Notes under the pieces: model-generated
Databases searched by the model: none
What the model saw: only the letters and a program-made list of their open reading frames with translations
Told to the model about the DNA's origin: nothing
Translations under genes and position numbers: made by a program
Assembly: GCA_028714035.1 (NCBI GenBank)
Contig: JAQTNA010000017.1
Span: 6,750-70,749, forward strand
DNA length: 64,000 nucleotides
Direction: 5' to 3'
Source of the DNA: Rhodocyclaceae bacterium
GTDB lineage: Bacteria; Pseudomonadota; Gammaproteobacteria; Burkholderiales; Rhodocyclaceae
Part shown: piece by piece, positions 6,301-39,103 of the stretch
Position numbering within the stretch: position 1 is the stretch's first letter
How the letters are laid out: each line of letters opens with the position of its first letter

Positions 6301-6322
6301 GGTAAACTTCGCGCCCTGCGAT

Positions 6323-6345
6323 TGTCGGGCTGAAGCCCGACCTAC
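6323..6345. repeat. REP unit variant (TGTCGGGCTGAAGCCCGACCTAC)
   Basis: Same stem as the 4091/5075 units with the loop changed to CTGAAG. It lies in the rlmI-rep spacer. Confidence 0.7.
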
Positions 6346-6374
6346 GGCCCGACCGACGCCCAACCTGTAAACCC

Positions 6375-8372
6375 ATGTCCCACCACCTCAATCCTCCCCA
6401 GCGCGAAGCCATCAAATACCTGGACGGGCCGCTCCTGGTGCTGGCCGGCGCCGGTTCGGGCAAGACGCGGGTCATCACGCAGAAGATCGCCCACCTGGTG
6501 CAGGTCTGCGAGCTGAATCCGGCCCACATCGCGGCCATCACCTTCACCAACAAGGCGGCCAAGGAGATGAAGGAGCGGGTGGCCAAGCTCATGCCGGGCC
6601 AGTCGGCGGCTGCGCTCAATGTCTCCACCTTCCACGCCCTGGGGGCGAAGATATTGCGCCTGGAGGCCAAGGCCCTGCATCTGAAGCCCTCGTTCTCCAT
6701 CCTGGATGCCTCGGATACCCTGGGCATACTTTCGGAACTGGCCAAGGAGTCGGACAAGGCGCGCCTCAAAGGCATGCAATGGAAGATTTCCGCCTGGAAG
6801 AACGCCATGATAGGGCCGGATTCCGCCGCGAGCCACGCCCAGGATGAGCTGGAACTGGCGGCGGCCCGGGTGTTCGGCGACTACGAGCGGGCGCTGCGGG
6901 CCTACCAGGCGGTGGATTTCGACGACCTGATCCGGCTGCCGGTGCAACTCTGGCAGGACGACCCGGAGATCCTGGCCCGCTGGCAGGGGCGGCTGCGTTA
7001 CCTCTTGGTGGACGAATACCAGGACACCAACCGCTGCCAGTACCTGCTGCTGAAGCTCCTGGCCGGTGCCCGGGGGGCGTTCACGGCGGTGGGCGACGAC
7101 GACCAGGCCATCTATGCCTGGCGCGGGGCGGACGTGGAGAATCTGCGCCAGTTGCAGCGGGACTACCCGAACCTGAAGGTGATCAAGCTGGAGCAGAACT
7201 ACCGTTCCAGCGCCCGCATCCTGAATGCCGCCAACACGCTCATCGCCAACAACGACAAGCTGTTCGAGAAGCGGCTCTGGTCCGAGCACGGGCCGGGCGA
7301 CCACATCCAGGTGTCCGTCTGCCGGGACGCGGAACACGAGGCCGAGGCGGTGGTGATGAAGCTCCTGGCGCACAAGTTCCAGAGCCGGGCCAAGTTCTCC
7401 GATTACGCCATCCTCTACCGGGGCAACTACCAGGCGCGTGCCTTCGAGCAGCAACTACGAAACCACAAGGTGCCCTATCTTCTGTCGGGCGGCCAGTCCT
7501 TCTTTGACAAGGCGGAAATCAAGGACATCACCTGCTACCTGCGCTTGATCGTGAACGGCGACGACGATCCGGCCTTCATCCGGGCAGTGACCACTCCCCG
7601 GCGCGGCGTCGGCACGTCTACCCTGGAGGCCCTGGGTTCGTACGCGGGCAGGCGCCATGTGAGCCTGATGCATGCCGCCTTCGAGTCCGGGGCCGAACAG
7701 CATGTGCCGGCCAAGCAACTGGAGGCGGTGCGGGAATTCGGCAACTTCATCTCACGCCTGGAATTTCGGGCGAAGAGCGAGGCCCCGGCGACGCTCCTGG
7801 AGGACATGCTCCGGGCCATCGGCTACGAGCACTTCCTTTTCGAGCACTGCGAGGCGCGGGAGGCCGAGACCAAGTGGGCCAACGTGAGGGATTTCGTCGG
7901 CTGGCTGGGCAAGAAGGGCGAGGAGGAGGGTAAGAGCCTGTTGGATCTGACCCAGTCCATCGCCCTCATCTCCATGCTGGACAAGGATGCCGGGGAGCAG
8001 GATGCGGTGCAACTGGCGACGCTGCACGCCGCCAAGGGCCTGGAGTTCGGCCACGTGTTCCTGGTGGGGGTGGAGGAGGGCATCCTGCCGCACCGGGAAT
8101 CCCAGGACGACGCCAAGATCGAGGAGGAGCGCCGCCTCATGTACGTGGGCATCACCCGTGCCCAGAGGAGCCTGCATCTGTCCTACTGCGCCCGGCGCAA
8201 GATGGGCAAGGAAATCCGCCACTGCGAACCCAGCCGCTTCATCGAGGAGATGTCCGGCGACGGCGCCGACATCAGGAAGATCGGCGGCAAGGATGCCGAA
8301 CCTACTCGGGAGGCAGGGCTTGCGGGTCTGGCCGCCGCTAGAGCAGCGCTTGGGGGTGGTGCGAAAAAATAA
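6375..8372 (+). CDS. rep: ATP-dependent DNA helicase Rep (SF1, UvrD/Rep family)
   Basis: 665 aa. Helicase motifs seen: LAGAGSGKTRVITQKIAHL (I), YLLVDEYQDTN (II), ILYRGNYQARAFE, ATLHAAKGLEF and RRLMYVGITRAQ. Confidence 0.93.
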   Translation: MSHHLNPPQREAIKYLDGPLLVLAGAGSGKTRVITQKIAHLVQVCELNPAHIAAITFTNKAAKEMKERVAKLMPGQSAAALNVSTFHALGAKILRLEAKALHLKPSFSILDASDTLGILSELAKESDKARLKGMQWKISAWKNAMIGPDSAASHAQDELELAAARVFGDYERALRAYQAVDFDDLIRLPVQLWQDDPEILARWQGRLRYLLVDEYQDTNRCQYLLLKLLAGARGAFTAVGDDDQAIYAWRGADVENLRQLQRDYPNLKVIKLEQNYRSSARILNAANTLIANNDKLFEKRLWSEHGPGDHIQVSVCRDAEHEAEAVVMKLLAHKFQSRAKFSDYAILYRGNYQARAFEQQLRNHKVPYLLSGGQSFFDKAEIKDITCYLRLIVNGDDDPAFIRAVTTPRRGVGTSTLEALGSYAGRRHVSLMHAAFESGAEQHVPAKQLEAVREFGNFISRLEFRAKSEAPATLLEDMLRAIGYEHFLFEHCEAREAETKWANVRDFVGWLGKKGEEEGKSLLDLTQSIALISMLDKDAGEQDAVQLATLHAAKGLEFGHVFLVGVEEGILPHRESQDDAKIEEERRLMYVGITRAQRSLHLSYCARRKMGKEIRHCEPSRFIEEMSGDGADIRKIGGKDAEPTREAGLAGLAAARAALGGGAKK

Positions 8373-8424
8373 ATCCTTGCTCCACGCGGGGCAAGCATCA
8401 TCGCGGTAACTACTCACCATCTAT

Positions 8425-8853
8425 TCACGCTACCGTCCAATCCTCCAGTTTCAGTCCTTCCACTATGGAAAACTCGTCCTGGTTGTGGGTCACGAGAATG
8501 GCGCCGAGGCTGAGAGCGTGGGCCGCGATCAGGGTGTCCATGGCGCCGATGGGGCGGCCGCGTTGTTCCAGGTCGGCACGAACGCCCCCCGCGATCAGGG
8601 CGGCCGGTTCATCGAAGGGGGCGATCCGGAAATCCAGCAGAAATTCGGAGAGTACCGCGTCGTTGGCCTTGCGCCAGCGGCTTTTCCTTACGCCGTAGCT
8701 CAGTTCAAAGACGACCACGCTGGATAAGTACACCTGGGCGTCGCTCGGCAGGGCTTCGAGCCGGGCCAGGATGCGTTGCTGGAACTCGGGCTGGCGCCCG
8801 GTCAGCAGGTAGATGCAGATGTTGGTGTCGAGCAGGTAATCCATGGCGATCAC
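8425..8853 (-). CDS. vapC: type II toxin VapC (PIN-domain ribonuclease)
   Basis: 142 aa. The N-terminus YLLDTNICIYLL carries the PIN acidic residue. It lies immediately downstream of an AbrB/SpoVT-type antitoxin gene with a 3-nt gap. Confidence 0.9.
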   Translation of the reverse strand: MIAMDYLLDTNICIYLLTGRQPEFQQRILARLEALPSDAQVYLSSVVVFELSYGVRKSRWRKANDAVLSEFLLDFRIAPFDEPAALIAGGVRADLEQRGRPIGAMDTLIAAHALSLGAILVTHNQDEFSIVEGLKLEDWTVA

Positions 8854-8856
8854 CCT

Positions 8857-9081
8857 TCACCACTGCCGTTCGTCAAATCCTTCCGCCTGCGGGCGATCCA
8901 GTTCGCCCTGGACCTGGCCGATGCAGGCCCGGACATGGCGCCAGCGGGAGGCCGGCTTAGGAATCAATACCACCGTATCGCCTTCGCGCCGGATGAATAC
9001 CTCGTCCACATCGAAGCGAAATTCCTTCGGCAGGCGCACCGCCTGGCTGTTGCCTTGCTTGAATACCTTGGTCGTAATCAT
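8857..9081 (-). CDS. vapB: type II antitoxin VapB (AbrB/MazE/SpoVT family)
   Basis: 74 aa. [23 protein letters not shown] is the SpoVT/AbrB swapped-hairpin signature. A GGGAG RBS lies upstream. Confidence 0.9.
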
Positions 9082-9178
9082 TGCACACTCCCGTTTGTGG
9101 GAACGGCTAAGTATATACGGGGCGCTTCGGTTTGGACAATGGCTGCTGCGGTTTCCCGGAAAGGAGGGCGATTTCTCC

Positions 9179-9766
9179 TCAGTCCACCACGAACCGGAAC
9201 TGGTCGCCCTGGTGGCTGCCGAAGAGGATGGTGTCGCCGGAGACGAGGGCCGCTTCGCTCACGGACTCGTTGGTGTGGGTGTTGAGGAAGGTACCGTTGG
9301 TGGACTCCAGGTCGCGCAGCACGGGCTTGCCGTCCACCAGGCCGATCCAGGCGTGGTGAGCCGAGACGCGGGTGTCGGGGATCACGACGTCGCAGGACTG
9401 GTGGCGTCCCACCGTGATGCCGGAGGTGGCGATGGGATATTTCCTGCCCCTCTGGCTGCCGGTGAGGCCGACCAGATGGGCGCCGGATACGCTGACGGGC
9501 GCCGCCCCCGCCCTTTGCAGCAGCACGGCGTGGGCGGATTCCAGGGGCGGCCGGATATGGACCTTGGTGGCGTCCGGATCGTAGGCTTCCGCCGGGCTTG
9601 CCGCGGGAAGGTCCACGAGCGGGCCATGACGGGCGGGCGGCGCCGCCTCGTCGTTAGCCTGGGGTCGGGTGACGGTCTGCTCCAGCTTTCGCAGGCGCGC
9701 CCACAGCATCAGGATGACGATCAGGAGGCCCGCGATCAGGGCAATCAGCAAGGAAATGATGAGCAT
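9179..9766 (-). CDS. FHA domain-containing membrane protein
   Basis: 195 aa. N-terminal TM helix [22 protein letters not shown], then a Pro/Ala-rich linker. The C-terminal FHA signature is [25 protein letters not shown]...[13 protein letters not shown]. Confidence 0.85.
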
Positions 9767-9784
9767 GATCCTACAATAAGCACT

Positions 9785-9922
9785 TGATTCACCGCAGAGG
9801 CGCAGAGACGCTGAGAAAACCGGAACTTGCCAAGTATTTTAGGCCCACCCGATGGGTGAAACGAGAAAACCGCTGTAATTCATTGTGTTTCCTCTGCGCC
9901 TCCGCGTCTCTGCGGTTCAAAT
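9785..9922. repeat. MITE-like interspersed element, copy 2
   Basis: Termini TTCACCGCAGAGGCGCAGAGACGCTGAGAAAA and TTTCCTCTGCGCCTCCGCGTCTCTGCGGTTCAAA. Its internal segment is related to copy 3 (CCCACCCGATGGGTGAAACGAGAAAACCG versus CCTCACCAAATGGATGAAATGGAAACCGG). Confidence 0.8.
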
Positions 9923-9948
9923 TGAGGTTTCCAGGATGGTTATAGGGC

Positions 9949-12255
9949 TTATTCGCCTTCGCTGGCCGGGGCGTAGGCCGAGTCGGGCTTGTCCAGGGGC
10001 GGGGGCGGCAGACTCTCCTGGTAGATCATTTCGCTGCCGGACGAGCCTCCCTCGCCGGCGGGCTTGATCGGGATCAGGCCGGGAGGCACGGGCAGCATCG
10101 CTTCAGGGACATTTGCCAGGGCTTTCTCCATGTAGCTGATCCACATGGGCAGGGCGGCGGCGCCACCGGTCTCGCCGTTGCCCAGGCGCCGGGGCTGATC
10201 GAAGCCGATCCAGGCCACGCCCACCAGGGTGGGCTGGTAGCCGCAGAACCAGGCGTCCACGTAGTCGTTGGTGGTGCCGGTCTTGCCCGCCAGGTCGTTG
10301 CGCTTCAAGGCCACGTGGGCCTTGGCGGCCGTGCCCCGGAGCACCACGTCCCGCATCATGCTGTCCATCAGGTAGTCATTGCGCGGGTCTATGGCGCGGA
10401 TGCTCTCGTCGCCGGCCAGCCTGGGCTGGGCCTGGGCCAGGAGGGTGCCCTTCGCGTCCTCGATGCGCTTCACGATGTAGGGCTGGATGCGATAGCCGCC
10501 GTTGGCGAACACGGAGTAGGCCGTGAGCTGCTGCCAGGGCGTGACGGAGCCGGCGCCCAGGGCCATGGTCAGGTAGGGCGGGTGCTTGTCCGCATCGAAG
10601 CCGAAATGGGTGATGTAATCCTGGGCGTAGGCGGCGCCGATGGCGCGCAGGAGGCGGATGGACACCATGTTCTTGGACTTGGTGAGCGCCGTGCGCAGGG
10701 TCATGGCGCCTTCGTACTTGCCGTCATAGTTGTGCGGCGTCCAGGCCTGGCTGCCGGTTTCCCCGGAGGAGATGGTGATGGGGGCATCTTCCATGACGCT
10801 GGCCGGGGAATAGCCCTTCTCCAGGGCGGCCGAATAGATGAAGGGCTTGAAGCTGGAGCCGGGCTGGCGCCAGGCCTGGCTCGCGTGATTGAACTTGTTG
10901 CGGTTGAAATCGAAGCCGCCCACCAGGGCGCGAATGGCGCCATCCGCCGGGTTGGCGGACAGGAAGGCCGCTTCCACATCCGGCAGTTGGGCGATCTGCC
11001 AGACCGGCTTGCCGTCCCGACCTTCCTTCCTGACGCGCACGATGGCGCCACGCCGCAGCCGCTTGTTGGCGGGCGCCTTGTCGCTCAGCATGGGCAGGGC
11101 AAATTTCAGGCCCTCGCCGGACAGGGTGATGACCTCGCCGCCCAGGCGGTAAACGCGCAGGGACTTGCTGTCGGCAGAGAGCACCACGGCTGGGTTGAGG
11201 TCGCCCACGTCGGACACGTCCTGCAAGGCTTCGTCCAGACCCTCGTCCTGGTCGGATTTGATCTCCGACATGTCCACGTAGGCTTCCGCGCCCCGGTAGC
11301 CGTGGCGCCGGTCGTAGTCCAGCACCCCCTGGCGCAGGGCGGCATAAGCCGCCTCCTGGTCCGTGCGGGTGATGGTGGTGATGACCCGCAGGCCGCGGTT
11401 GTAGGCATCCTCGTGGAACTGCTCGATGGCGATCTGGCGCGCCATCTCGGCGACGTAATCGGCATGCACGGAGAATTCGTTCGGGTCGCGCTTGACGTGC
11501 AGGCTCTCCTTTTCGGCCTCGGCGTATTGCCGCGCATCCAGGAATCCGAGATCGTTCATGCGGCGCAGCACGTAGAGTTGCCGCACCCGGGCACGCCTCG
11601 GGTTGGCCACCGGGTTGTAGCTGGAGGGCGCCTTGGGCAGCCCGGCGAGCATGGCGGCCTCCGCCGGCGTCAGGTCCTTCAGGCTCTTGCCGAAATAGAT
11701 CTGGGCGGCCGAGGCGAAGCCGTAGGATCGTTGCCCCAGGTAGATCTGGTTGATGTACAGCTCCAGGATCTGGTCCTTGCTGAGATTGTGTTCGATCTTG
11801 AAGGAAAGAAGAACTTCCAGCACCTTGCGGTTCAGGGTCTTCTCGCTGGACAGGAAGAAGTTGCGCGCCACCTGCATGGTGATGGTGCTGGCGCCCTGGC
11901 GCTTGCCGCCGCTCACCAGGTTGGCCAGGGCCGCGCGCAGCACGCCCAGGGTGTCCACGCCGCCATGCTGGTAGAAGCGTTCGTCTTCGGCGGCGAGGAT
12001 GGCGTTCTTCATCACCGCCGGCACGTCCTTGATCGGTACGAAGGTGCGCCGCTCCTCGCCGAACTCGCCGATCTGGAATCCGTCCGCGGTGAACACCCGC
12101 AGAGGCTGCTTGGGCCGGTAATCGGTCAGCGCATCGAGCGAGGGCAACTTGGGATAGGCAAAGAGCGCTACCATTCCGGCGAAGGCGGCGGCCAGGAAGC
12201 CAATGCCGGCAAATCCGAGTGCGAGATGGAACAGCCAGCGGCGGGAAGGATTCAC
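9949..12255 (-). CDS. mrcA: penicillin-binding protein 1A (bifunctional glycosyltransferase/transpeptidase)
   Basis: GT51 motif ILAAEDERFYQHGGVD and transpeptidase motifs RQPGSSFKP (SxxK), SKN and KTGTTND. The longest ORF reaches 12390. GTG 12255 (VNPSRRWLFHLALGF...) is preferred because it sits just before the TM helix with a GAAGG RBS. The start remains uncertain. Confidence 0.9.
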   Translation of the reverse strand: MNPSRRWLFHLALGFAGIGFLAAAFAGMVALFAYPKLPSLDALTDYRPKQPLRVFTADGFQIGEFGEERRTFVPIKDVPAVMKNAILAAEDERFYQHGGVDTLGVLRAALANLVSGGKRQGASTITMQVARNFFLSSEKTLNRKVLEVLLSFKIEHNLSKDQILELYINQIYLGQRSYGFASAAQIYFGKSLKDLTPAEAAMLAGLPKAPSSYNPVANPRRARVRQLYVLRRMNDLGFLDARQYAEAEKESLHVKRDPNEFSVHADYVAEMARQIAIEQFHEDAYNRGLRVITTITRTDQEAAYAALRQGVLDYDRRHGYRGAEAYVDMSEIKSDQDEGLDEALQDVSDVGDLNPAVVLSADSKSLRVYRLGGEVITLSGEGLKFALPMLSDKAPANKRLRRGAIVRVRKEGRDGKPVWQIAQLPDVEAAFLSANPADGAIRALVGGFDFNRNKFNHASQAWRQPGSSFKPFIYSAALEKGYSPASVMEDAPITISSGETGSQAWTPHNYDGKYEGAMTLRTALTKSKNMVSIRLLRAIGAAYAQDYITHFGFDADKHPPYLTMALGAGSVTPWQQLTAYSVFANGGYRIQPYIVKRIEDAKGTLLAQAQPRLAGDESIRAIDPRNDYLMDSMMRDVVLRGTAAKAHVALKRNDLAGKTGTTNDYVDAWFCGYQPTLVGVAWIGFDQPRRLGNGETGGAAALPMWISYMEKALANVPEAMLPVPPGLIPIKPAGEGGSSGSEMIYQESLPPPPLDKPDSAYAPASEGE

Positions 12256-14147: not shown

Positions 14148-14866
14148 AGCTCAATGTCCCGAAGTTTTCCGGCCTGAGCCTTTCCGGCAAGGGGCATGGC
14201 TTGAACCGTGCGGCCCTGTCCGAGTTGCCGAAAATGGACTTCGCCGCCATCGTCGACGAATTCCGCTACCTGGATTCCCGCGATATCGGCAACTGGCCGC
14301 GTTATCCGCGTATCGCCGCGCTGCTCGCGCTGTTGCTGGCCCTGCTGTTGGCCGGTTGGTGGTTTGACTGGAGTACGCAACTCGAGGAGCTGGGCTCGAA
14401 GCAGAAGCAGGAAATATCGCTCAAGGAAGAGTTCCTCAACAAGAAAAAGCAGTCGGTCAATCTCGAGGAATACCGGAAGCAGCTCGCCGAGATAGACCGA
14501 TCCTTCGGTTCCCTGCTCAAGCAGTTGCCGAACAAGGAGGGCATGGAGTCCCTCCTGATTGACATCAACCAGGCCGGACTCGGCCGTGGGCTGCAATTCG
14601 AACTGTTCAAGCCCGGCAATGAAACCATCAAGGACTTCTACGCCGAGCTGCCGATCCAGTTGCGCGTGACGGGCTCCTATCATGACCTGGGGCAGTTCGC
14701 GGGGGATGTGGCCAAACTGTCCCGTATCGTTACCCTGAGCGAGCTGTCTCTGAGTGCCGGCCAGGGGGGCGTTCTCAACCTGGATGCCGTTGCCACCACC
14801 TACCGATATCTGGATTCGGAGGAAATGGCCAGGATCAAGGCCGCCAAGGGCAAGGGAGGCAAGTGA
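14144..14866 (+). CDS. pilO: type IV pilus assembly protein PilO
   Basis: 240 aa. It overlaps the pilN stop. TM helix IAALLALLLALLLAGWWF followed by a coiled-coil region. Position between pilN and pilP supports the call. Confidence 0.88.
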   Translation: MKLNVPKFSGLSLSGKGHGLNRAALSELPKMDFAAIVDEFRYLDSRDIGNWPRYPRIAALLALLLALLLAGWWFDWSTQLEELGSKQKQEISLKEEFLNKKKQSVNLEEYRKQLAEIDRSFGSLLKQLPNKEGMESLLIDINQAGLGRGLQFELFKPGNETIKDFYAELPIQLRVTGSYHDLGQFAGDVAKLSRIVTLSELSLSAGQGGVLNLDAVATTYRYLDSEEMARIKAAKGKGGK

Positions 14867-15414
14867 TGGGCGCGTCGAAACGGTTTGCTCGGCCCGGCCT
14901 GTCCTCCTCGTTCCTGGGCTTGCTGCTGATTCTTGCCCTCGGAGCGTGCAGCAGCGGCGATAATCAGGATCTGAAGGACTGGATGCGCGAGGCCACCAAG
15001 GGCATGAAGGGCAAGGTACCGCCGCTGCCGGAAGTGCGATCCGGCCCTTCGGCGGATTACGAGGCCGGGAACCTGCTTGACCCCTTCAGCGCGACGAAGA
15101 TCGAACCGGAAAAGAAGACCCGTGGCGGGGGACTTCAGCCAGACATGAACCGGCGACGGGAACCCCTGGAGAGTTTCCCCCTGGAATCGCTGAAAATGGT
15201 GGGCACCCTGAGCCAGAAGAACACCACCTATGCCCTGATTCAGGCCGACAAGTCGCTCTACCAGGTGCGCGTCGGCAACTACATGGGCCAGAGTTTCGGT
15301 GTCATCACGCGTATTACGGATAGCGAGATCACCCTGAAGGAACTGGTGGAAGATGCGACGGGGGACTGGACCGATCGGATCAGCACGCTGCAATTGCAGG
15401 AGACGGGAAAATGA
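14863..15414 (+). CDS. pilP: type IV pilus assembly lipoprotein PilP
   Basis: 183 aa. Lipobox LILALGAC. The C-terminal beta-domain motif YALIQADKSLYQVRVGNYMGQSFGVITRI is PilP-like. Confidence 0.88.
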   Translation: MMGASKRFARPGLSSSFLGLLLILALGACSSGDNQDLKDWMREATKGMKGKVPPLPEVRSGPSADYEAGNLLDPFSATKIEPEKKTRGGGLQPDMNRRREPLESFPLESLKMVGTLSQKNTTYALIQADKSLYQVRVGNYMGQSFGVITRITDSEITLKELVEDATGDWTDRISTLQLQETGK

Positions 15415-17660
15415 GCAAGATCGTAATGTTGTGGCGGGCCTTGGCGGTCATGGCGTGCCTGTTCCTGTCGCCGTGGGCGGAGGCGCAGGGAAGCGCCGCT
15501 CCGGCCAACGCCATTCAGACCTTGCAGGCCACCCGCCTGGGAGGAAACATCGTCGTCAAACTCGGATTGAGGCAGGCGCTGCAAAAGCTGCCGGCGGCCT
15601 TCAGCGTCGCCAACCCGGCGCGCATTGCCCTCGATCTGCCCGGGACCGAAAATGGCCTGGGAAAGAATAGCGAGAACGTGAACGAGGGAGATCTGAAGAG
15701 CGTCAACATCGTCCAGGTGGCGGATCGCACCCGTGTCGTACTGAACCTGATGAAAATGGCCTCCTTCGATACGCGCCTGGAGGGTAATGCCGTGGTCGTC
15801 ACCATCACGCCGCAACTGGGCCAGGGCGTCGGGACGGCTCCGGCCGCATCCCGGTTTGCCGAGTCGCGCCCGAGCGAGGTGAAGCACGGCCTGCGTGCCG
15901 TCAACTTCCGCCGCGGCAAGGAAGGCGAGGGCAGGATCATCGTGGATCTGTCCGATAGCGACACCGGAATTGACATCCGCCAGCAGGGGCAGAGCCTGGT
16001 GGTGGATTTCCTCAAGTCCAGCCTGCCGGCCAAACTGGCCAAGACCCTGGATGTCACGGATTTCGCGACACCGGTCACCAGCATCGTGACCACGACCGAG
16101 GGCGACAGCGTGCGCATGGTCGTGACCCCGAAGGGCCTTTGGGAACACAACGCCTATCAGAGCGACAATCAGTTCGTGCTGGAGGTGAAGCAGATAGTGG
16201 AAAGCGCGAACAAGCTGGTGCAGGGTAGTCGTCCCGGCTATCAGGGCGAGAAGCTTTCCCTCAACTTCCAGAACGTGGACGTGCGTTCGGTGCTTCAGGT
16301 CATCGCCGATTTCACCAACTTCAACATCATCACCAGCGACACGGTGGGCGGCAACCTGACGCTGCGCCTGAAGGACGTGCCCTGGGATCAGGCGCTGGAC
16401 ATCATCCTTCAGGCCAAGGGCCTGGACATGCGCAAGAACGGCAACGTCATCTGGATCGCGCCGCGGGACGAACTGGCGGCGAAGGAGAAGCTGGAGCTGG
16501 AGTCCAAGCAGCAGATCTCCGACCTGGAAGTGACCCGGACCGAGGGCTTCCAGCTCAACTACCAGAAGGCCGACGCGGTGCAGAAGCTTCTCGCCGACAA
16601 GAACCAGTCCATCCTGTCCAAGCGCGGCAGCGCCGTGGTGGATGCCCGCACCAACAAGCTCTTCGTCAATGACACGCCGACCCGCTTGGAGGAGGTGCGC
16701 AAGTTCATCGCGGAAATTGACATCGCGACGCGCCAGGTTCTGATCGAGGCGCGCATCGTCGAGGCCCAGGATACCTTCGCCCGCACCCTGGGCGCCAAGC
16801 TCGGTTTCGGCGGCGTCTACGGTAGCGGCAGCGTCAAGACGACTCCGACCTCCAGCAACTCCAGCAGTACCACCAGCACCACCACCGGGGGCGTGACCAC
16901 GGTCACCGGTACGTCCTCCTCCAGCGCCGGCACGACCACCGGGTACAACGCGGCGACGGCCAACGGCCTGTTCCCCCAATACGCCGCGGGCTCCAGCCTG
17001 AACGCCACCGGCTACACTTCCGGGCAGTTGTCCACCCAGCCCACTCTGGACCAGTTGCTCAACGTGAATCTCGGTGCCGGTTCCATCAACGGCATGCAGG
17101 CCGGCTCCCTCGCCCTGAGCCTCTATAGCGCCGGGCTTTCCCGCTTCATTGACCTGGAACTGTCCGCCCTGGAGGCCGACGGCAAGGGCAAGGTGGTCTC
17201 CAGCCCGCGCATTATGACCGCCAACCAGGTGGAAGCCATCATCGAGCAGGGAACCGAACTGCCCTACAGCCAGAGCACCAGTTCCGGTGCCACCGCGGTG
17301 TCCTTCCGCAAGGCGAACCTGTCCCTGAAAGTGAAGCCGCAGATCACGCCCGACGGCAGCATCATGATGCAGCTGGACGTGAACAAGGACACCCCGGATC
17401 CCTCCATCTCCAACACCGTGGGCATCGCCATCAGCACCAAGCATGTGAAGACCGAAATCCAGGTGGAGAACGGCGGCACCGTGGTCATCGGTGGCATCTA
17501 CACCCAGAATGACTCGACCACGGTCACCAAGGTGCCGTTCCTGGGGGATGTGCCGCTGCTGGGCAATCTGTTCAAGAACACCTACCGGAACAACCAGAAG
17601 ACGGAGCTCCTGGTGTTCATCACGCCGAAGATCGTCAGCAATGCCCTGACGCTTCAGTGA
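15411..17660 (+). CDS. pilQ: type IV pilus secretin PilQ
   Basis: 749 aa. Signal peptide, then AMIN-type N-terminal repeats. Secretin C-terminus: VPFLGDVPLLGNLFKNTYRNNQKTELLVFITPKIV. Confidence 0.95.
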   Translation: MSKIVMLWRALAVMACLFLSPWAEAQGSAAPANAIQTLQATRLGGNIVVKLGLRQALQKLPAAFSVANPARIALDLPGTENGLGKNSENVNEGDLKSVNIVQVADRTRVVLNLMKMASFDTRLEGNAVVVTITPQLGQGVGTAPAASRFAESRPSEVKHGLRAVNFRRGKEGEGRIIVDLSDSDTGIDIRQQGQSLVVDFLKSSLPAKLAKTLDVTDFATPVTSIVTTTEGDSVRMVVTPKGLWEHNAYQSDNQFVLEVKQIVESANKLVQGSRPGYQGEKLSLNFQNVDVRSVLQVIADFTNFNIITSDTVGGNLTLRLKDVPWDQALDIILQAKGLDMRKNGNVIWIAPRDELAAKEKLELESKQQISDLEVTRTEGFQLNYQKADAVQKLLADKNQSILSKRGSAVVDARTNKLFVNDTPTRLEEVRKFIAEIDIATRQVLIEARIVEAQDTFARTLGAKLGFGGVYGSGSVKTTPTSSNSSSTTSTTTGGVTTVTGTSSSSAGTTTGYNAATANGLFPQYAAGSSLNATGYTSGQLSTQPTLDQLLNVNLGAGSINGMQAGSLALSLYSAGLSRFIDLELSALEADGKGKVVSSPRIMTANQVEAIIEQGTELPYSQSTSSGATAVSFRKANLSLKVKPQITPDGSIMMQLDVNKDTPDPSISNTVGIAISTKHVKTEIQVENGGTVVIGGIYTQNDSTTVTKVPFLGDVPLLGNLFKNTYRNNQKTELLVFITPKIVSNALTLQ

Positions 17661-30676: not shown

Positions 30677-32487
<1,811 letters not shown>

Positions 32488-32615: not shown

Positions 32616-32957
32616 ATGCCGACCCTTTCCGACGTTTTCCGCGACGCCGATGCGCACTCGCTGCTTGCCTTTTTTGATTCCCTGGACCTGGACCTTTTCG
32701 AGAAAAAGCTCTTCGAGAAGAACGGCAAGCCCTATCTCACCTGCCTTGCCACGGGCAAGGAGAAACAGGCCAAGCCCGAGGGGCGTGAAGCAAAACCCGC
32801 CAACGGTACACGCCCGTATCTGACGGCTGAACACCTTGTCCTGACCCGCGGCCGACAGTGCCATGCGGCAATCATCCACACCCCGCACCTACCTATACAA
32901 CGCTCTTCCCGCAAAAACAGCCTCCCCGGAAAACTTCGCGTAGAATCCGCCGGTTGA
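32616..32957 (+). CDS. orphan ORF, possibly a gene remnant; function unknown
   Basis: 113 aa and GC-rich. Only the first 55 or so residues look protein-like (MPTLSDVFRDADAHSLLAFFDSLDLDLFEKKLFEKNGKPYLTCLATGKEKQAKPE). The rest is low-complexity and basic. No RBS or family was recognised. Confidence 0.25.
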   Translation: MPTLSDVFRDADAHSLLAFFDSLDLDLFEKKLFEKNGKPYLTCLATGKEKQAKPEGREAKPANGTRPYLTAEHLVLTRGRQCHAAIIHTPHLPIQRSSRKNSLPGKLRVESAG

Positions 32958-32986: not shown

Positions 32987-34327
32987 ATGAATTACCTTGA
33001 GGCGATTGCGACTGCGACTGCGACTGCGCCTGCGGAGCATCTCGCCAGAACCAAGGCCCGGCTGGCTGACCTTTACAGGCGAGATTCGCGCCCATGGATC
33101 GTAGCCTTTTCGGGTGGAAAAGACTCCACGTTGTTACTCCAACTTGTCTATGAGTTGCTGTTGGAGTTAGGGAAGCAAGCCGGAAAAACCGTGCACGTAG
33201 TCTCGTCGGACACCGGCGTTGAGGCTCCCAATGTCAGTGCCTACCTAGCTAGAACTTTGGAGTGCATTGCTCACGGAGCGCAAGAGGCCGGACTTCCTTT
33301 TCAGGTGCACTTGGTAAAACCCGCCCCGCATGAGAGCTTTTGGGCAAAGCTCATCGGTGCCGGGTACCCGTCGCCAACGCGCTGGTTCCGCTGGTGTACG
33401 ACCACGATGAAAATTCGGCCTACACGGCGCATCATAGAAAAAATTACCCAACATGACGGTAGTGTTATCCTTCTGCTTGGCACTAGGGTTGATGAGAGCA
33501 GTGACCGTGGCAAGAGGATTCAAAACCGTCAAAGCACGGCAGATGGATTGAATCCGCATCATGAAATTCCCAACGCCTTGGTCGCTACCCCCATCGTAGA
33601 TTGGTCAACCGAGGAGGTATGGGATTACCTGTTTTCCCACAACCCACCTCCATGGGGAGGGCGCCACGATTTCTTGCTGGAACTCTATCGGCAGGCGGCT
33701 GGCGGAGAATGTCCCGTTGTCTTCGATCTTTCAACTCCCTCTTGTGGCGGCAGTCGTTTTGGCTGCTGGACCTGCACTGTGGTCAAGGAAGACAAGTCAA
33801 TGCAAGGATTCATCCAATCCGGTGAAGTCCAATTTGCTCCGTTGAATGATTTTCGGGATAAGTTGAAGCGAGTTCGAGAATTGCAAGACTGGCGCTCCCC
33901 TCGAAAGAAGGACGGCACAGCCGGCCCTGGCCCTTTTCGCCCAGAGAGGCGGGTTGAACTTTTTCGAGAGCTGTTGGCCCTGGAAAAACAGGTTGGTGAA
34001 AGACTCATAAGCGATGAGGAAATTCATGGAATCCAGGAGCTTTGGACCCGCGAATTTGATTTGAGCGGAACGGCGTTAAAGCTGGCGGCAGAATTTGGGA
34101 GGCGCGTGGAAACGATGGACGAGCTTGATCATCCCCCCCTGGAACAGCAAGTTCTGGACGAATTGCTTGCTGCCGGCGACCTTGAGCCAGATCTTATAGA
34201 CCGACTGTTAAGCCTTGTACTAAGGGAGTACCCAGACCTGACGGTCTGGGGTTCGAAGGCGGCCTTGGAACGTGAAATTGCTCAGGCCATCGCCGCTTCG
34301 GTCGAGCGCCAAGGAGGAACAGCATGA
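32987..34327 (+). CDS. dndC: DNA phosphorothioation system sulfurtransferase DndC (PAPS-reductase/ATP-pyrophosphatase fold)
   Basis: Track ORF 32858..34327 is trimmed to ATG 32987 (GGAG RBS 7 nt upstream). PP-loop WIVAFSGGKDSTLLLQL and RWCTTTMKIRP. The C-terminal Cys cluster is ECPVVFDLSTPSCGGSRFGCWTCTVV. These are the DndC hallmarks. Confidence 0.92.
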   Translation: MNYLEAIATATATAPAEHLARTKARLADLYRRDSRPWIVAFSGGKDSTLLLQLVYELLLELGKQAGKTVHVVSSDTGVEAPNVSAYLARTLECIAHGAQEAGLPFQVHLVKPAPHESFWAKLIGAGYPSPTRWFRWCTTTMKIRPTRRIIEKITQHDGSVILLLGTRVDESSDRGKRIQNRQSTADGLNPHHEIPNALVATPIVDWSTEEVWDYLFSHNPPPWGGRHDFLLELYRQAAGGECPVVFDLSTPSCGGSRFGCWTCTVVKEDKSMQGFIQSGEVQFAPLNDFRDKLKRVRELQDWRSPRKKDGTAGPGPFRPERRVELFRELLALEKQVGERLISDEEIHGIQELWTREFDLSGTALKLAAEFGRRVETMDELDHPPLEQQVLDELLAAGDLEPDLIDRLLSLVLREYPDLTVWGSKAALEREIAQAIAASVERQGGTA

Positions 34328-36366
34328 TTTTTCGCCGGCTTTTCCTTGAAAACATCTTCTCATATCGCCATGCAGAGTTCGATTTCGGGGGTGAAACCGC
34401 CGACAAGAACATAGTTCTCATATTTGGCCGCAACGGATACGGAAAAACCAGTCTCACGAACGCCATTAAATTGCTTTTTGCCGGCCCTAATGACGACATG
34501 CGTTCTTCCATTTTGCCTGGTGCGAAACCAAAGGCTGATGAGTACGTGCTTGGCATGGGTGACGAATGGATGGGGATTTTTAACGCTCATGCACGGCGGG
34601 ACGGCGAACGCGACTGCTGGGTACGCCTTGTTTTCGAAGAAAGCGGCGTCGAGGTAGAAGTCGAGCGACGCTGGTCCATCATGGACGGTGGTTACAAGGA
34701 AGAACTGAAAATAGACATTCATGGCGACGCCACTCGCCATCTTGTCGACGAGGACGCGCAGCATTTTCTGAATGAACGCCTCCCCGAAGACTATCTTCCG
34801 TTCTTTTTCTTCGATGGCGAGCAAATTCAGCGCTTAGCGGAGGCGAACCGTAGCCAAACCACAAGGGAAATCGAGCGACTGTTACAACTTTCGCCAGTCG
34901 ACACCTTGGCGGAATATCTCGAAAAAGTTGCGCGAGCTTGGCGCAACAGCGATATGCCCAGCCATGTCAAGGCGGTGCTTGCACGGCTGGAGCGAGAACG
35001 GGCCGAACTGGAGGCTAGGGCGGCCGAAGCGACTGACCGGCAAGAAGTCCTGACGCTTGAGCGCGAAGATCTAGAACGTTTGATCGAACAGGAAGACCTT
35101 TATCTCGATAGCCGCCGAACCGGCCAACTCGTCGCCGCAGAGGGGCCGCTAAGAGTAGAGCATCAGCAACGCCGCGAGGAACTAGAGGTTTTGCAGCTTA
35201 GAATCGCTGAGGCATTGCCAACGAATGCTTTTCTGTTGGCTAATTCCGGCTTGGTTAGTAAGGCAGTTGAGGATATCAAGAAGTTATTTGATAATCCATC
35301 AGGAGCTCAAGCCGAAATCCTTCAGGATATTTACAACAGTCTGCCAACCGATTTATTCAAGTCGCCGCATCCTTCCCCTTTGCTCACTGAAAATCAGGTG
35401 CGTTTCTATAGGGAGCGCCTTGCGCATCTATTGCAGGCTTACATACCTAGCCCCGGCATGATCAGCGACGGTGTAATACAACTTGAAACCTCTCGCGCCC
35501 GCCAATTGCTGACGCTCTTGGAACATGCATTACAGTCCTCGCAAGAACGTGATGACCGAGTTATGCAACTCAGAGAAGCAGTACGTCTCAAGAACCATAT
35601 TCGAACGATACAGGATAAGCTGGACGACATAAGCAGCATGCCCAACGAGGAGCAGCAGGAGTACATCGAGCGGAAGGCTGATAACAACCGGCGCCGCGAA
35701 AGAATTGGCGCCATTGGAAAAGAACACGAAGAAGTTGATAAATCGCTACGGGATTTTGCAAACAAAATTGAAGCCAAAGGTAACGAAATACGCGCTCAGG
35801 AAAAGAAGGTTTCTGTCAGCGAGAAAAACCGCCGTAAGCTTGACCGTACGGAAGCTTTGAAACGGTTTTTCGCCCGCTATAAGAATGAACTTAAAAAGAC
35901 AAAACGAGCAGCCATCGAAGAAGCGATTAATCGTCGTTTCCGAGAGTTAATGACTAGTCATGGATTGATCGCGCATATTCGGGTGGATGAGTTTTTTGGC
36001 GTTCATTATTTGGATGCGCAGGGAAATCCGGTGGGAATGGCGAGCATTTCAGCAGGCATGAAGCAATTAGCGGCAACGGCGTTGTTATGGGCTCTCAAGG
36101 AGGTTTCGGAGAAGGACGTTCCTATCGTGATTGACACGCCCCTTGCGCGTATTGACCGCCAGCATCAAGAAAATCTCTTGACCCGCTACTACCCGCAAGC
36201 AGGGAAGCAGATCATTATCCTTCCCACGGACGCTGAAATTGACCGAGAAAAGCATGCATTGATTGCGCCAAGGATATATAGGGAATATTTGCTTGAAAAT
36301 TCAGATGGTCAAGACACGAAGGTAGTTGAGGCGCCTATCTTCCCTGCGGAGAATAGCCATGTCTGA
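34324..36366 (+). CDS. dndD: DNA sulfur modification protein DndD (SMC/ABC-like ATPase)
   Basis: 680 aa. An ATGA overlap joins it to dndC. N-terminus MIFRRLFLENIFSYRH... with Walker A FGRNGYGKTS. It has a long central coiled coil, signature SAGMKQL, and Walker B/D-loop PIVIDTPLARID. Confidence 0.92.
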   Translation: MIFRRLFLENIFSYRHAEFDFGGETADKNIVLIFGRNGYGKTSLTNAIKLLFAGPNDDMRSSILPGAKPKADEYVLGMGDEWMGIFNAHARRDGERDCWVRLVFEESGVEVEVERRWSIMDGGYKEELKIDIHGDATRHLVDEDAQHFLNERLPEDYLPFFFFDGEQIQRLAEANRSQTTREIERLLQLSPVDTLAEYLEKVARAWRNSDMPSHVKAVLARLERERAELEARAAEATDRQEVLTLEREDLERLIEQEDLYLDSRRTGQLVAAEGPLRVEHQQRREELEVLQLRIAEALPTNAFLLANSGLVSKAVEDIKKLFDNPSGAQAEILQDIYNSLPTDLFKSPHPSPLLTENQVRFYRERLAHLLQAYIPSPGMISDGVIQLETSRARQLLTLLEHALQSSQERDDRVMQLREAVRLKNHIRTIQDKLDDISSMPNEEQQEYIERKADNNRRRERIGAIGKEHEEVDKSLRDFANKIEAKGNEIRAQEKKVSVSEKNRRKLDRTEALKRFFARYKNELKKTKRAAIEEAINRRFRELMTSHGLIAHIRVDEFFGVHYLDAQGNPVGMASISAGMKQLAATALLWALKEVSEKDVPIVIDTPLARIDRQHQENLLTRYYPQAGKQIIILPTDAEIDREKHALIAPRIYREYLLENSDGQDTKVVEAPIFPAENSHV

Positions 36367-37876
36367 TATCAGCATCGGAGCATTGGACGAACAGACTATT
36401 GAGCGAGTTATTGAGCAAGGGTTGGGAGTCCGGGCAAAAAGGGACGCCAGAAAATGGGTTGCGCTGAGGCTTGCGCTTGCCGCCTCGTTGCGACTACCTA
36501 CGCCGCCGGATGAATCCCTCGATCACATTGAGGATCGCAAGGGCGGCAATAGTTATCATCTAGAACAGGTGACAGGCAAAGGGTTGCGACATGAAGATGG
36601 CGAACCGAGGCAGGATTATGACGACACTGCTTGCGCTCTGCTATCTATTTTCCATCAAATGAATCTGTTTGATGACTATGCGGCTTATAGGCGCTTTTTA
36701 CAGCGACATATCCGCCGTGGCCTCCGGGAGTTTCGAACAGGTTGGCGCGATTCTCATGACTTTCATGAATTCTTGTTTCAAGAGCTTTTCTCCGGTGAAT
36801 CAAGACACGCGGTCGACGATGGATTAGTAGACCGTCTTTCAGGCGCGCTGGAAGAAATCGGTATTACGGCAGAGACTCGTCGCGTTGTAGAAGGTCCGCG
36901 CCTGACCCGCTTTTTTCTCTATTTACCGTCAGCGGACGATCTTGCTCCCATTACGAGGGGTTTGGGGAAATTGGGGCATATTCTTGGCTTGGGGGCTCAG
37001 AACGCCTTCCTCACCCATACGGATGAACCAAAGGTCATCGCACTGGATATACCTAGAAGGCAGGACACTTGGTCCACTGTCATGGGCTATCAGTTGGCCG
37101 ATTGGGCAGATAAATATGAAGGAGATTTTCTCCTGCCAGTATGGCCAGGGGTGGACGTTATTGGCAACCCATTCGTGCTTGATCTCGCTGTTGCGCCCCA
37201 TTTATTGGTTGGTGGAACTACTGGCAGTGGGAAGAGCGTTTGTCTTAATGCGCTGATAGTGTCTTTGCTTCGGGGGCCGAGTCGAGAGCGGCTACAGCTT
37301 TGCCTCATTGACCCAAAACGCGTCGAGTTCGAACCATATAGGCGGCTGGAGGGGCTTTTCGGTGGAGAAGTAATCACTGAAGCCCAGGAGGCGCGTGCCG
37401 TGCTTCTACAATTGGTCGTAGAGATGGAAACGCGTACCCAATTATTGGCTCAAGTCGGCGCACGTGACTTGGCTGAAGCGCACCAACACGGGGTGATGCT
37501 CGACGTACTGCGTATTGTGGTAGTGGTAGAAGAGCTTGCTGATTTGCTGATGCAGGACGAAGATGCCGAAATGCCGCTTGTACGTCTTGCCGGAAAGGCA
37601 AGGGCTTCCGGTATTCATTTGGTACTTGCGACCCAACGGCCTGACGCAGCGACCTTTTCGGGGCTATTGCGCTCCAATATTCCAAGCAGAATTGCGCTCA
37701 CGGTGCAGAAAGCGTCGGAGTCCAAGATTATTTTGGACGAAACAGGGGCGGATCATCTTACCGGGCAAGGTGACATGTTGATAAAAACGGCCCAGGGGAC
37801 GACCCGCGTTCACGGTGTAAAGGTCAGCACGGATGATATTGCCAGTGCTATTAGCCGTTACCAGCGAAACGGATAA
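36359..37876 (+). CDS. FtsK/SpoIIIE-family DNA translocase ATPase with an N-terminal DndE-like domain (putative DndE-FtsK fusion)
   Basis: Track ORF 36326..37876 is trimmed to ATG 36359, giving an 8-nt overlap with dndD. The C-terminal 350 or so aa contain the FtsK alpha/beta motor: GPRLTRFFL, IALDIPRR, Walker A LVGGTTGSGKSV, Walker B VVVVEELADLLM, HLVLATQRPD, RIALTVQKASESKIILDETGADHLTGQGDML. The N-terminal 140 or so aa (RKWVALRLALAASLRLPTPPDE...GGNSYHLEQVTGKG...RRFLQRHIRRGLREF) fit the DndE pattern. That assignment is pattern-level only. Confidence 0.85.
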   Translation: MSDISIGALDEQTIERVIEQGLGVRAKRDARKWVALRLALAASLRLPTPPDESLDHIEDRKGGNSYHLEQVTGKGLRHEDGEPRQDYDDTACALLSIFHQMNLFDDYAAYRRFLQRHIRRGLREFRTGWRDSHDFHEFLFQELFSGESRHAVDDGLVDRLSGALEEIGITAETRRVVEGPRLTRFFLYLPSADDLAPITRGLGKLGHILGLGAQNAFLTHTDEPKVIALDIPRRQDTWSTVMGYQLADWADKYEGDFLLPVWPGVDVIGNPFVLDLAVAPHLLVGGTTGSGKSVCLNALIVSLLRGPSRERLQLCLIDPKRVEFEPYRRLEGLFGGEVITEAQEARAVLLQLVVEMETRTQLLAQVGARDLAEAHQHGVMLDVLRIVVVVEELADLLMQDEDAEMPLVRLAGKARASGIHLVLATQRPDAATFSGLLRSNIPSRIALTVQKASESKIILDETGADHLTGQGDMLIKTAQGTTRVHGVKVSTDDIASAISRYQRNG

Positions 37877-38098
37877 ACTTCGCCGCTTTGATAGGAACGC
37901 AACGAACGGCTCCGGCGAGTGGTAGAACGTCATTTTATCCAGCCGTTTGCGCGCCTCCAACCTACTGGAAGCCGCCAAGCGCGCCGTGGAAATCGCGATA
38001 GAATCGGGCGAGACGCCCGCCATCAAGTTTCTGGCCGAAGCCTCGAAAGGAAAGTCTTCATGAACCAAAACCTGCCGACCTTTTGATCTGGACGCCTC

Positions 38099-38362
38099 AT
38101 GCCAACCATCAGTCAGTTTTTCGGCATCCTGATTTACATGTATATTCGCGGCGAGCACAATCCGCCGCATTTTCATGCGCTTTACGCCGAGCATGAAGCC
38201 CTGATTGACATTCAGACCCTCCAGGTCATTGGCGGCAGCCTGCCGCGCCGGGCCTTGGTCATGGTGCTGGAGTGGGCCAATGAACACCGTGCGGAATTGA
38301 TGGAGGACTGGAAATTATGCCGAGCGAAACAGTTGCCCAAACCCATCGAGCCCCTGGAGTGA
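38099..38362 (+). CDS. DUF4160 domain-containing protein
   Basis: 87 aa. MPTISQFFGILIYMYIRGEHNPPHFHALY is the DUF4160 hallmark. It is paired with a DUF2442 gene, which is the usual two-gene arrangement. Confidence 0.85.
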   Translation: MPTISQFFGILIYMYIRGEHNPPHFHALYAEHEALIDIQTLQVIGGSLPRRALVMVLEWANEHRAELMEDWKLCRAKQLPKPIEPLE

Positions 38363-38637
38363 TTCCCGCCGCGCCATGGCGATTGAAGGCGGTCAGTGCG
38401 CAGCCAGGATGGCGGCTGGCGGTCACTTTTAACGATGGCCTGACGGGGATCGTTGATCTTGCCGGCTTGGTCAACGGAACCGACGCGGGAGTGTTCGAGC
38501 CCCTGCGCGACCCGGACTTTTTTTCTCATGTTTTCCTCGATTACGGGGCGGCGGCGTGGCCAAACGGCGCCGACTTGGCGCCCGACGCCATGCACGAGGA
38601 AATCCGCCGCCACGGCATTTGGCTTGTTACGGAGTAA
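38359..38637 (+). CDS. DUF2442 domain-containing protein
   Basis: Track ORF 38317..38637. GTG 38359 overlaps the upstream stop (GTGA). PWRLKAVSAQPGWRLAVTFNDGLTGIVDL...AAWPNGADLAPDAMHEEI is DUF2442-like. Confidence 0.8.
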   Translation: MIPAAPWRLKAVSAQPGWRLAVTFNDGLTGIVDLAGLVNGTDAGVFEPLRDPDFFSHVFLDYGAAAWPNGADLAPDAMHEEIRRHGIWLVTE

Positions 38638-38668
38638 TTCAGATTTCCAATCTAACGGAGAACCGGCA

Positions 38669-38893
38669 ATGACTTCGAAGCGCATCGTCATCGTCGCCGG
38701 CCCCAACGGAACTGGGAAGACCACCTTCGCCCGTGGAACCCATCTGCCGCCAAGTATGGCCCCAGTTGTCTCCGGCAAATGCTGCACGAGCGGCACCAGC
38801 CGGCCCGCTCGGTGCCGATGGAGGTATTCGCATTCTAGGGCAATCAGGCCCCGATTTATCAGCCTAACGGTACGTCCCAGGGCGATCGCATGA
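38669..38893 (+). pseudogene. decayed zeta-toxin/AAA-type ATPase gene (only the N-terminal P-loop segment is recognisable)
   Basis: MTSKRIVIVAGPNGTGKTTFAR is the N-terminus of the zeta-toxin-like P-loop kinase family. After about 22 codons the frame becomes basic, low-complexity sequence, consistent with a deletion or frameshift. Confidence 0.55.
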
Positions 38894-38920
38894 ATGCTAC
38901 GGTAATACATGGACGGTGTT

Positions 38921-39039
38921 CTCCCTCCCCTTCGAGGGGAGGGATGGGGCGGGGATGGGGTAAGAATGTGCCTGGAACGGCCTGGTTTCTGCCTTTCCAT
39001 ACCCCATCCCCCTCCTCACCTCCCCCTTGGAGGGGGAGG
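38921..39039. repeat. composite palindromic element (CTCCCCTTNNAGGGGAGG family), copy 2
   Basis: CTCCCTCCCCTTCGAGGGGAGGG ... GGGGATGGGGTA / ACCCCATCCCCCTCC ... CCTCCCCCTTGGAGGGGGAGG. It has the same three-part architecture as 22695-22799 with a different central segment. Confidence 0.75.
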
Positions 39040-39067
39040 AAGCGATGCATACGACATTCATGCGATT

Positions 39068-39103
39068 GCGCTGCGGTACGTCTCGGCGTCTCGGCGTTTC
39101 AAA
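39068..39103. repeat. MITE-family terminal repeat at the right border of the dnd island
   Basis: The last 22 nt, CTCGGCGTCTCGGCGTTTCAAA, match the copy-3 right terminus CTCTGCGTCTCTGCGGTTCAAA at 19 of 22 positions (hand alignment). It is in inverted orientation relative to 32456-32487. Confidence 0.55.

Follow-up and report, generated by a model that had tools for sequence, protein, structure and literature searches.

Fusion of DndE to a HerA/FtsK motor has been described for a subset of phosphorothioation (PT) systems, in which the fusion adjoins a "DndD-related ABC ATPase." The description takes up one sentence, on HerA/FtsK clade-3 (Rakesh, Aravind & Krishnan, NAR 2024, PMC10853773), and the fusion is credited there to Krishnan et al., NAR 2020. 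The same paper proposes DndD-DndE as a DNA-scanning core, takes substitution of IscS for DndA as established, reports that solitary PT modification modules are common, and notes that HerA/FtsK domains have been recruited recurrently into defence proteins (e.g. DndH, SspH, and MADS mad8). Here, we analyse a dndC-dndD-dndE::ftsK cassette within a 64,000-nucleotide stretch of DNA (the window) from Rhodocyclaceae bacterium (GCA_028714035.1, contig JAQTNA010000017.1, positions 6,750-70,749 of the forward strand). An earlier note on this DNA took the three-gene architecture to be undescribed, which was mistaken because PMC10853773 states the fusion. Comparative genomics had already drawn attention to this Dnd variant, of which the locus is a new, reduced member; it does not represent a new kind of system.

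With moderate confidence, we read the cassette as recently acquired and as the reduced form of a recurrent cassette of five genes, one that has lost the effector pair and would act as an orphan PT writer using the housekeeping cysteine desulfurase IscS. The features on which this reading draws are as follows.

32987-34327, + strand: gene 1, DndC with a C-terminal Sp-DndD domain, 446 amino acids (TIGR03183, PADLOC, motifs)
34139-34309, + strand: Sp-DndD domain, an in-frame fusion to DndC at amino acids 385-441 of gene 1 (motif YPDLTVWGSK)
34324-36366, + strand: gene 2, DndD-like ABC ATPase, 680 amino acids (TIGR03185, PADLOC, ABC2 match)
36359-37876, + strand: gene 3, DndE::FtsK αβ, 505 amino acids (PF08870 at family level, PF01580, fold searches)
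36359-36793, + strand: N-terminal DndE domain of gene 3, amino acids 1-145, two ribbon-helix-helix units
36797-37876, + strand: FtsK alpha+beta motor of gene 3, amino acids about 147-505
37877-38098: empty effector slot, a 222-nucleotide spacer that is the site of the AriA-like ATPase and AriB-like Toprim genes in relatives

The Three Cassette Proteins

The three genes are full length, intact, and tightly overlapping, and an independent assembly of the locus yielded the same gene calls (446, 680, and 505 amino acids). The coupling described in the earlier note agrees with both coordinates and sequence: genes 1 and 2 share an ATGA at 34324-34327, and genes 2 and 3 overlap by 8 nucleotides at 36359-36366. 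The motifs quoted in that note for genes 1 and 2 were likewise all found in the proteins named, and its assignment of the two genes to the DndC and DndD families was borne out by the profile searches given below.

Gene 1 matched the TIGR03183 DndC profile with 336.8 bits, above the curated cutoff of 290.4, and the PADLOC DndC model with E = 7e-116. The PP-loop SGGKDS is present at residue 42 and the Cys cluster CGGSRFGCWTC at residue 253, and 109 of 111 family-conserved positions are retained, both departures being conservative. The match of gene 1 to SspD reached only E = 4e-11, and no matches to SspB (triple winged helix-turn-helix) or SspC (Orc/Cdc6 AAA+) were found in the cassette proteins, which sets the cassette apart from SspABCD-SspE/FGH systems.

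The last ∼60 residues of gene 1 form an additional domain beyond DndC, a feature absent from the earlier note. This tail shares 30% identity (E = 4e-7) with a separate 64-residue "DNA modification system-associated small protein" encoded on Mesorhizobium pM0123d. Searched alone, it scored 18.2 bits against PF20306 (Sp-DndD), under the cutoff of 27.2; at family level, PF20306 was matched by 11 of 13 tails or separate small open reading frames (ORFs), with a best E value of 4e-14. Of the related loci, 33 have the domain as part of DndC and about 13 have it as a separate ∼65-residue ORF, and the motif YPDLxxWGxK is common to all fused and separate copies.

Gene 2 aligned end to end with the TIGR03185 DndD profile over residues 1-669, scoring 271.7 bits against a cutoff of 245.85. 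Walker A GRNGYGKTS (residue 35), SAGMKQL (residue 576), and IVIDTPLARID (residue 601) are all present, and 70 of 71 family-conserved positions are retained. Mesorhizobium pM0123d encodes two ABC ATPases, one of which (ABC2) matched gene 2 over its full length with 239 bits. By contrast, the other (ABC1, the canonical DndD there) matched at the ends only, with 60-69 bits. By these comparisons, gene 2 is placed in an FtsK-linked ABC2 subclade and not in the canonical DndD subclade, an assignment that the earlier note did not contain.

The best PADLOC model for gene 2 was PbeC (PDLC02738), at 428 bits, the DndD model scoring 294. PbeC is a CxC-clade ABC ATPase defined by its Zn-hook (PMC10853773). 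Identification of gene 2 as PbeC, which the PADLOC scores had suggested, was rejected because the protein has a single cysteine (C98) and no CxC, so that the defining hook is missing. Mesorhizobium ABC2 is also without CxC.

Gene 3 matched PF01580 (FtsK_SpoIIIE) with E = 4e-42, and its family profile matched the FtsK structures 2IUS/2IUU in the PDB with E = 3e-84. Foldseek comparison of the motor returned 6T8O, 6T8B, and 2IUS at E of about 1e-29, with 33-35% identity and a TM-score of about 0.8 on the target. Walker A GGTTGSGKS at residue 285 (K292), Walker B E392/D395, and TQRPD all lie within the 85 family-invariant columns, and all 85 invariant residues are retained. The alpha and beta motor and its intact ATPase motifs are those of cellular FtsK/SpoIIIE; the difference lies in the remainder of the protein, which has a DndE N terminus and no N-terminal membrane (4TM) domain, linker, or gamma (KOPS-reading) domain. 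FtsK_SpoIIIE is the only Pfam family found, and the protein ends immediately after the beta domain.

The N-terminal region of the window copy scored 18.8-21.3 bits against PF08870 (DndE), below the gathering score of 25. PF08870 was matched by all 26 of 26 family N termini tested, with a best E value of 3.9e-10, and no other family was matched. An AlphaFold2 model of this region (pLDDT 84) contains two beta-alpha-alpha units. When the fold was compared with 350,542 PDB chains, the top three hits were all E. coli B7A DndE (4LRV; probability 0.98, TM-score 0.64-0.67, weak E value); a sequence-profile search of the PDB with the same domain gave no match. The protein encoded by gene 3 is, on profile and model evidence, a DndE domain and FtsK αβ motor in one polypeptide. 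The motor-fused DndE put forward in the earlier note is thereby supported, through PF08870 (26/26), the 4LRV fold, and PF01580.

PADLOC also reported SspH for gene 3, a match confined to the shared FtsK domain. Matches to mad8 and mad3 raised MADS as a relative, which was reduced to a loose analogy since these matches extend no further than the common FtsK and ABC ATPase domains.

A Five-gene Cassette in Related Loci

Relatives were collected from 74 metagenome loci fetched via the DndE-like N terminus, together with loci from exact-protein look-up, which left 68 loci after de-duplication at 95%; gene presence was counted only in loci with sufficient flanking DNA. At 50% identity, the moderately large gene 3 family falls into 81 clusters (E ≤ 1e-10), of which about half are full-length proteins of ∼500 residues, and its members come from Rhodocyclaceae, Magnetococcales, Desulfobacterota, Methylocaldum, Nitrosospira, Kentrum, and others. 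A search of genome contigs yielded two true family members (L007 and L008), the other matches being almost all housekeeping FtsK. Among 72,556 plasmids, there was one full-length family match and a second covering 84%, and no family members were found among IMG/VR viral contigs.

The DndD-like ATPase was present in 53 of 53 loci and DndC in 45 of 47. Directly downstream of gene 3, an AriA-like AAA_15/AAA_21 ABC ATPase was encoded in 52 of 56 loci, followed in 46 of 50 by an AriB-like protein of ∼285-295 residues. Median gaps between cassette genes were 22-38 nucleotides (22 between gene 3 and the next gene), which fits a single operon. Given the frequency of the two downstream genes, the standard unit in these neighbourhoods is one of five genes: DndC(::Sp-DndD), the DndD-like ATPase, DndE::FtsK, the AriA-like ATPase, and the AriB-like Toprim. 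The earlier note had offered the window cassette as a self-contained compact three-gene system; against this survey, it is a rare reduced form.

The AriA-like ATPase has ∼380-420 residues, and its nearest solved structures are retron PtuA (E = 4e-13) and AriA (3e-12). The AriB-like protein matched the PADLOC AriB model with E values from 1e-4 down to 8.6e-9, and of 29 members, 16 matched DUF4435 (best E = 1.1e-7); its family profile gave no sequence match in the PDB. Its invariant residues are E26, D30, D81-x-D83, and E119-x-E121. They parallel the Toprim residues E26, D30, D88, E90, and E122 of AriB (PMC11464382).

Five genes are present in each of the four closest relatives of the window cassette (72-75% identity). 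Including the window, four loci are without the AriA-like/AriB-like pair, and two of the three besides the window have decayed: in L162, DndD is fragmented into 240, 88, and 330 residues, and in L098, only a fragment of gene 3 is present. In the L162/L163 lineage (7966-10008), which was represented by at least 11 contigs, the cassette lies beside dnaA-dnaN-gyrB, with DndD in three ORFs and the effector pair missing; this cassette is a decaying copy.

The triad in the window might likewise be an inert remnant, having had no selected function since effector loss and heading to pseudogenisation, its genes intact only because the loss or acquisition was recent. The scarcity of loci without the AriA-like gene (4 of 56), with L162 and L098 among them, points in this direction, as do the unameliorated base composition, which indicates recent arrival, and the lack of an above-chance promoter-like signal upstream (see below). 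However, the ORFs are complete and overlap tightly, and the invariant and near-invariant residues of all three proteins are kept but for three conservative changes. An intact triad without the AriAB-like pair is also found in L167 (70% identity), and solitary PT modules are common (PMC10853773). We consider an inert remnant unlikely.

In L167, a 174-residue ORF and then a 420-residue DndB-family (PF14072) protein occupy the place of the AriAB-like pair (5807-7590), so that the slot after the triad is variable and exchangeable. One alternative in the earlier note was a self-contained defence or epigenetic variant with a scanning or effector activity supplied by the translocase. The intact triad of L167 could be taken in this sense: the three genes would suffice, the effector being the FtsK translocase, perhaps through pumping of invader DNA or stalling on it; the recurrence of HerA/FtsK domains in DndH, SspH, and MADS mad8 (PMC10853773) would suit such a role. 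Yet an ATPase-nuclease pair is almost always present in the same operon (52/56), the L167 slot is itself filled by another accessory, DndB-family gene, and profile and PADLOC searches of the three proteins returned nothing resembling a nuclease or toxin. A self-sufficient triad of this kind seems highly improbable.

Apart from the cassette genes, the most recurrent neighbour was TIGR04096, a PT-associated methyltransferase (597 bits) that adjoins the cassette in 7 of 68 loci; no other gene recurred in more than 7 of 68. In L092, it is encoded at 14393-16963 (− strand) as a ∼856-residue [quoted passage not shown] and the six further loci are alike. In L161, a close relative with five genes (like L165), a tyrosine recombinase is encoded just upstream of the cassette. 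In Desulfonema limicola (L002, CP061799.1; 4974-7963), dndC is split by a 503-residue ORF into a 191-residue PAPS_reduct fragment and a 271-residue C-terminal fragment, the other four cassette genes being intact. A Dam-type methyltransferase (PF02086) is encoded just downstream on the opposite strand, and a genuine cellular ftsK, with 4TM, alpha, and gamma domains, lies about 5 kb from the cassette.

Composite Loci

Two loci, L164 (Mesorhizobium amorphae pM0123d, NZ_CP015322.1, 734965-752446) and the metagenome locus L157, have a composite order of nine genes: DndA, DndC, ABC1 (DndD), DndE, small protein (SP), ABC2, DndE::FtsK, AriA-like, and AriB-like. A gene for a DGQHR protein lies nearby on the opposite strand in both. 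These are the only two related neighbourhoods in which DndA was found. The layout implies that SP-ABC2-DndE::FtsK-ATPase-Toprim can act as a module additional to a canonical writer, an arrangement formally similar to that of PbeABCD with DndCDEA. Compared with the composite, the compact five-gene form seems to be missing ABC1 and DndE and often has a DndC-SP fusion, and the window form seems to have lost the effector pair as well; in both steps, the direction of change is one that we infer.

On this layout, ABC2, DndE::FtsK, and the small protein could form the core of a sensor and not of a writer, that is, a Pbe-like scanner reporting modification status to the AriAB-like effector, with DndC either inactive or in need of a canonical DndD-DndE elsewhere. 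The position of the five genes directly after DndA-DndC-DndD-DndE, in parallel to DndCDEA-PbeABCD (PMC10853773), suggests this, as do the higher PADLOC score of gene 2 for PbeC (428 bits) than for DndD (294 bits) and the small protein, a hallmark of the Pbe/CxC-type module (PMC10853773). Against it, DndC with invariant catalytic residues is encoded directly upstream of ABC2 in 45 of 47 loci, and save in the two composite cases, there is no canonical DndD-DndE within 10 kb; retention of DndC under these circumstances is difficult to account for if ABC2-DndE::FtsK does not serve it. Gene 2 also passes the DndD equivalog cutoff and is without the CxC Zn-hook that defines PbeC. A sensor core without a writing role is judged decidedly unlikely.

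Base Composition, Borders, and Absent Partners

The G+C content of the cassette is 0.522, compared with 0.646 in each 10-kb flank. At third codon positions (GC3), the cassette genes have values of 0.51-0.55, compared with 0.80-0.88 in murU, amgK, lptD, and hslO, which indicates recent arrival. The low-G+C cassette, which lies between murU and hslO, is a recently and horizontally acquired island. A foreign composition had already been proposed from hand counts of 26/60 G+C at 35221-35280 and 44/60 at 31801-31860; both counts are exact, and the GC3 values back the proposal. The neighbours of the cassette are housekeeping genes (murU, Hsp33, and ArsC) and a DUF4160/DUF2442 pair. At the island borders, no att-like or flanking direct repeats were found, the flanks contain no integrase remnant, and there is no tRNA anywhere in the window. 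Promoter and terminator scans around the cassette gave no signal above shuffled expectation, and no promoter-like signal above chance was present upstream.

The earlier report that DndA, DndB, and a restriction partner are missing near the cassette holds for the whole window. No IscS-type (IscS/NifS) Cys loop and no tblastn match to Mesorhizobium DndA were found in its 64 kb, nor was a DGQHR motif or a match to the Mesorhizobium DGQHR protein or to the L167 DndB. A six-frame translation of the window contains no HKD motif, so that a PbeA-type HKD/SF2-helicase nuclease is absent; a PbeA-type gene is also absent among the conserved neighbours of the relatives. The window gave no tblastn match to Mesorhizobium DndE or to the AriA-like and AriB-like proteins, and the TIGR04096 methyltransferase is absent from it. 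DNA homology of the window to L161 and L162 stops at 37842. In the flanks and the effector slot, no remnant of effector genes, DndB, or integrase was detected, even at E values up to 5.

Directly 3′ of the cassette, at 38099-38637 (+ strand), are two overlapping small ORFs, DUF4160 (87 residues, E = 2e-23) and DUF2442 (106 residues, E = 7e-11), which occupy the place of the effector pair of the relatives. Their GC3 is intermediate, at 0.68-0.70, and they may be a separately acquired, toxin-antitoxin-like two-gene module. A 146-residue ORF at 38453-38893 (+ strand) overlaps the DUF2442 gene; it has a P-loop-like GPNGTGKTT and no Pfam match and may be a fragment of a kinase/zeta-toxin-type ATPase or spurious. 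In the interval from the island to hslO, an inverted repeat at 38922-39040, imperfect and rich in G+C, has 41-nucleotide arms, 73% complementary and 37 nucleotides apart. A second inverted-repeat pair (38878-38896 and 39055-39073, 89%) lies in the same interval. The repeats at 38878-39073 may represent either a terminator or a REP-like element, and the right border of the island may lie here. On the other side, between murU and the cassette, the gene calls of the independent assembly include a 113-residue ORF at 32616-32957 (+ strand), which matched no Pfam family and has no homologue in any related locus.

Discussion

Comparison with described systems places the window cassette beside the DndE::HerA/FtsK subset of Dnd loci (PMC10853773), with which it has in common the fusion polypeptide, the position of the fusion immediately downstream of an ABC ATPase related to DndD, and the DndC context. 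The difference is that the window copy is without the partner genes found in 52 of 56 relatives. With the canonical DndABCDE systems of S. lividans, Salmonella, and E. coli B7A, it shares equivalog-level matches to DndC and DndD, a DndE-fold domain, and the gene order C-D-E; dependence on a cysteine desulfurase would also be expected of both. Unlike these, the window has no DndA or DndB, its DndE is fused to a motor and is not a stand-alone protein of ∼110 residues, its DndC has an Sp-DndD tail, and its ABC ATPase is of another subclade.

PbeABCD/CxC-ABC systems (Xiong et al. 2019; re-annotated in PMC10853773) resemble the composite loci in placing a second ABC ATPase-DndE pair and a small, rapidly evolving protein beside canonical Dnd. 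A motor paired with a nuclease is a further likeness, and the Sp-DndD tail in the window corresponds to the small-protein feature of PbeB type. They differ in that the present family has no CxC Zn-hook and no HKD-nuclease/SF2-helicase PbeA, the motor is an FtsK fused to DndE, and the nuclease arm of the relatives is an ABC ATPase and Toprim pair. The likeness to PARIS (AriA and AriB) concerns the relatives only, in which the gene for an ABC ATPase precedes that for a DUF4435-like protein whose acidic catalytic residues match those of AriB. The window, however, has no such pair; in the relatives, the pair forms part of a Dnd operon and does not stand alone, its similarity to AriB being remote.

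The reduced-copy reading can be set out as the following mechanism. The FtsK αβ domain would assemble as a ring and translocate along duplex DNA, carrying ribbon-helix-helix domains of DndE that would recognise target sites; DndE would thus take over the reading of DNA from the KOPS-reading gamma domain. Together with DndE, the DndD-like ABC ATPase would provide the DNA-scanning core. DndC would use ATP and an Fe-S/Cys centre to insert sulfur into the DNA backbone, the sulfur being delivered as persulfide by housekeeping IscS, a source proposed because the cassette and almost all of its relatives are without DndA. In complete cassettes, the AriA/AriB-like pair would most likely be the effector arm, acting by nuclease-based restriction or abortive infection. 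With that arm gone here, the triad would be an orphan PT writer, providing modification without restriction.

Several points weigh against this reading. The visible genome is 64 kb, and iscS or further dnd genes may lie outside it. The DndE and Sp-DndD domains of the window each score below the Pfam gathering scores, and the literature searched contains no experimental work on the DndE::FtsK family and hence no demonstrated PT writing. Like PbeC-PbeD, the ABC2-DndE::FtsK pair may have its role in sensing or restriction, since the composite loci put it beside a complete DndA-DndC-DndD-DndE set. Finally, the window copy could be a younger stage of the decay seen in L162 and L098, given that two of the three other loci without the AriA-like gene are visibly decaying.

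For the DndE::FtsK subset, PMC10853773 mentions no Toprim, DUF4435, or PARIS partners and no DndC::Sp-DndD fusion. Full-text searches (DUF4435 with phosphorothioate; DndC/DndD/FtsK) returned no link between PT and a PARIS-type effector, although the original Krishnan et al. 2020 might still draw the five-gene form. We propose, tentatively, that the five-gene cassette is an undescribed defence system that combines, in one fixed unit, a PT writer with motor-fused DndE and a PARIS-like pair of ABC ATPase and Toprim nuclease, the window copy being a natural effector-less mutant.

If so, sulfur marking of the DNA backbone would be linked to a Toprim restriction nuclease or an "anti-anti-restriction" abortive arm, and one motor-fused ABC ATPase-DndE pair would serve both writing and sensing in a compact form. 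The more interesting object is the five-gene cassette of the family, which the window does not contain. In nearly every case, its PT scanning core comes with an AriA/AriB-like ATPase-Toprim pair, a link not found in the literature searched. Fusion of the DndE reader to a true FtsK αβ translocase makes the PT "DNA-scanning core" directly testable with motor-dead mutants, and effector-less copies such as that in the window, together with copies in which a DndB-family gene fills the slot, are ready-made comparisons between writing and restriction.

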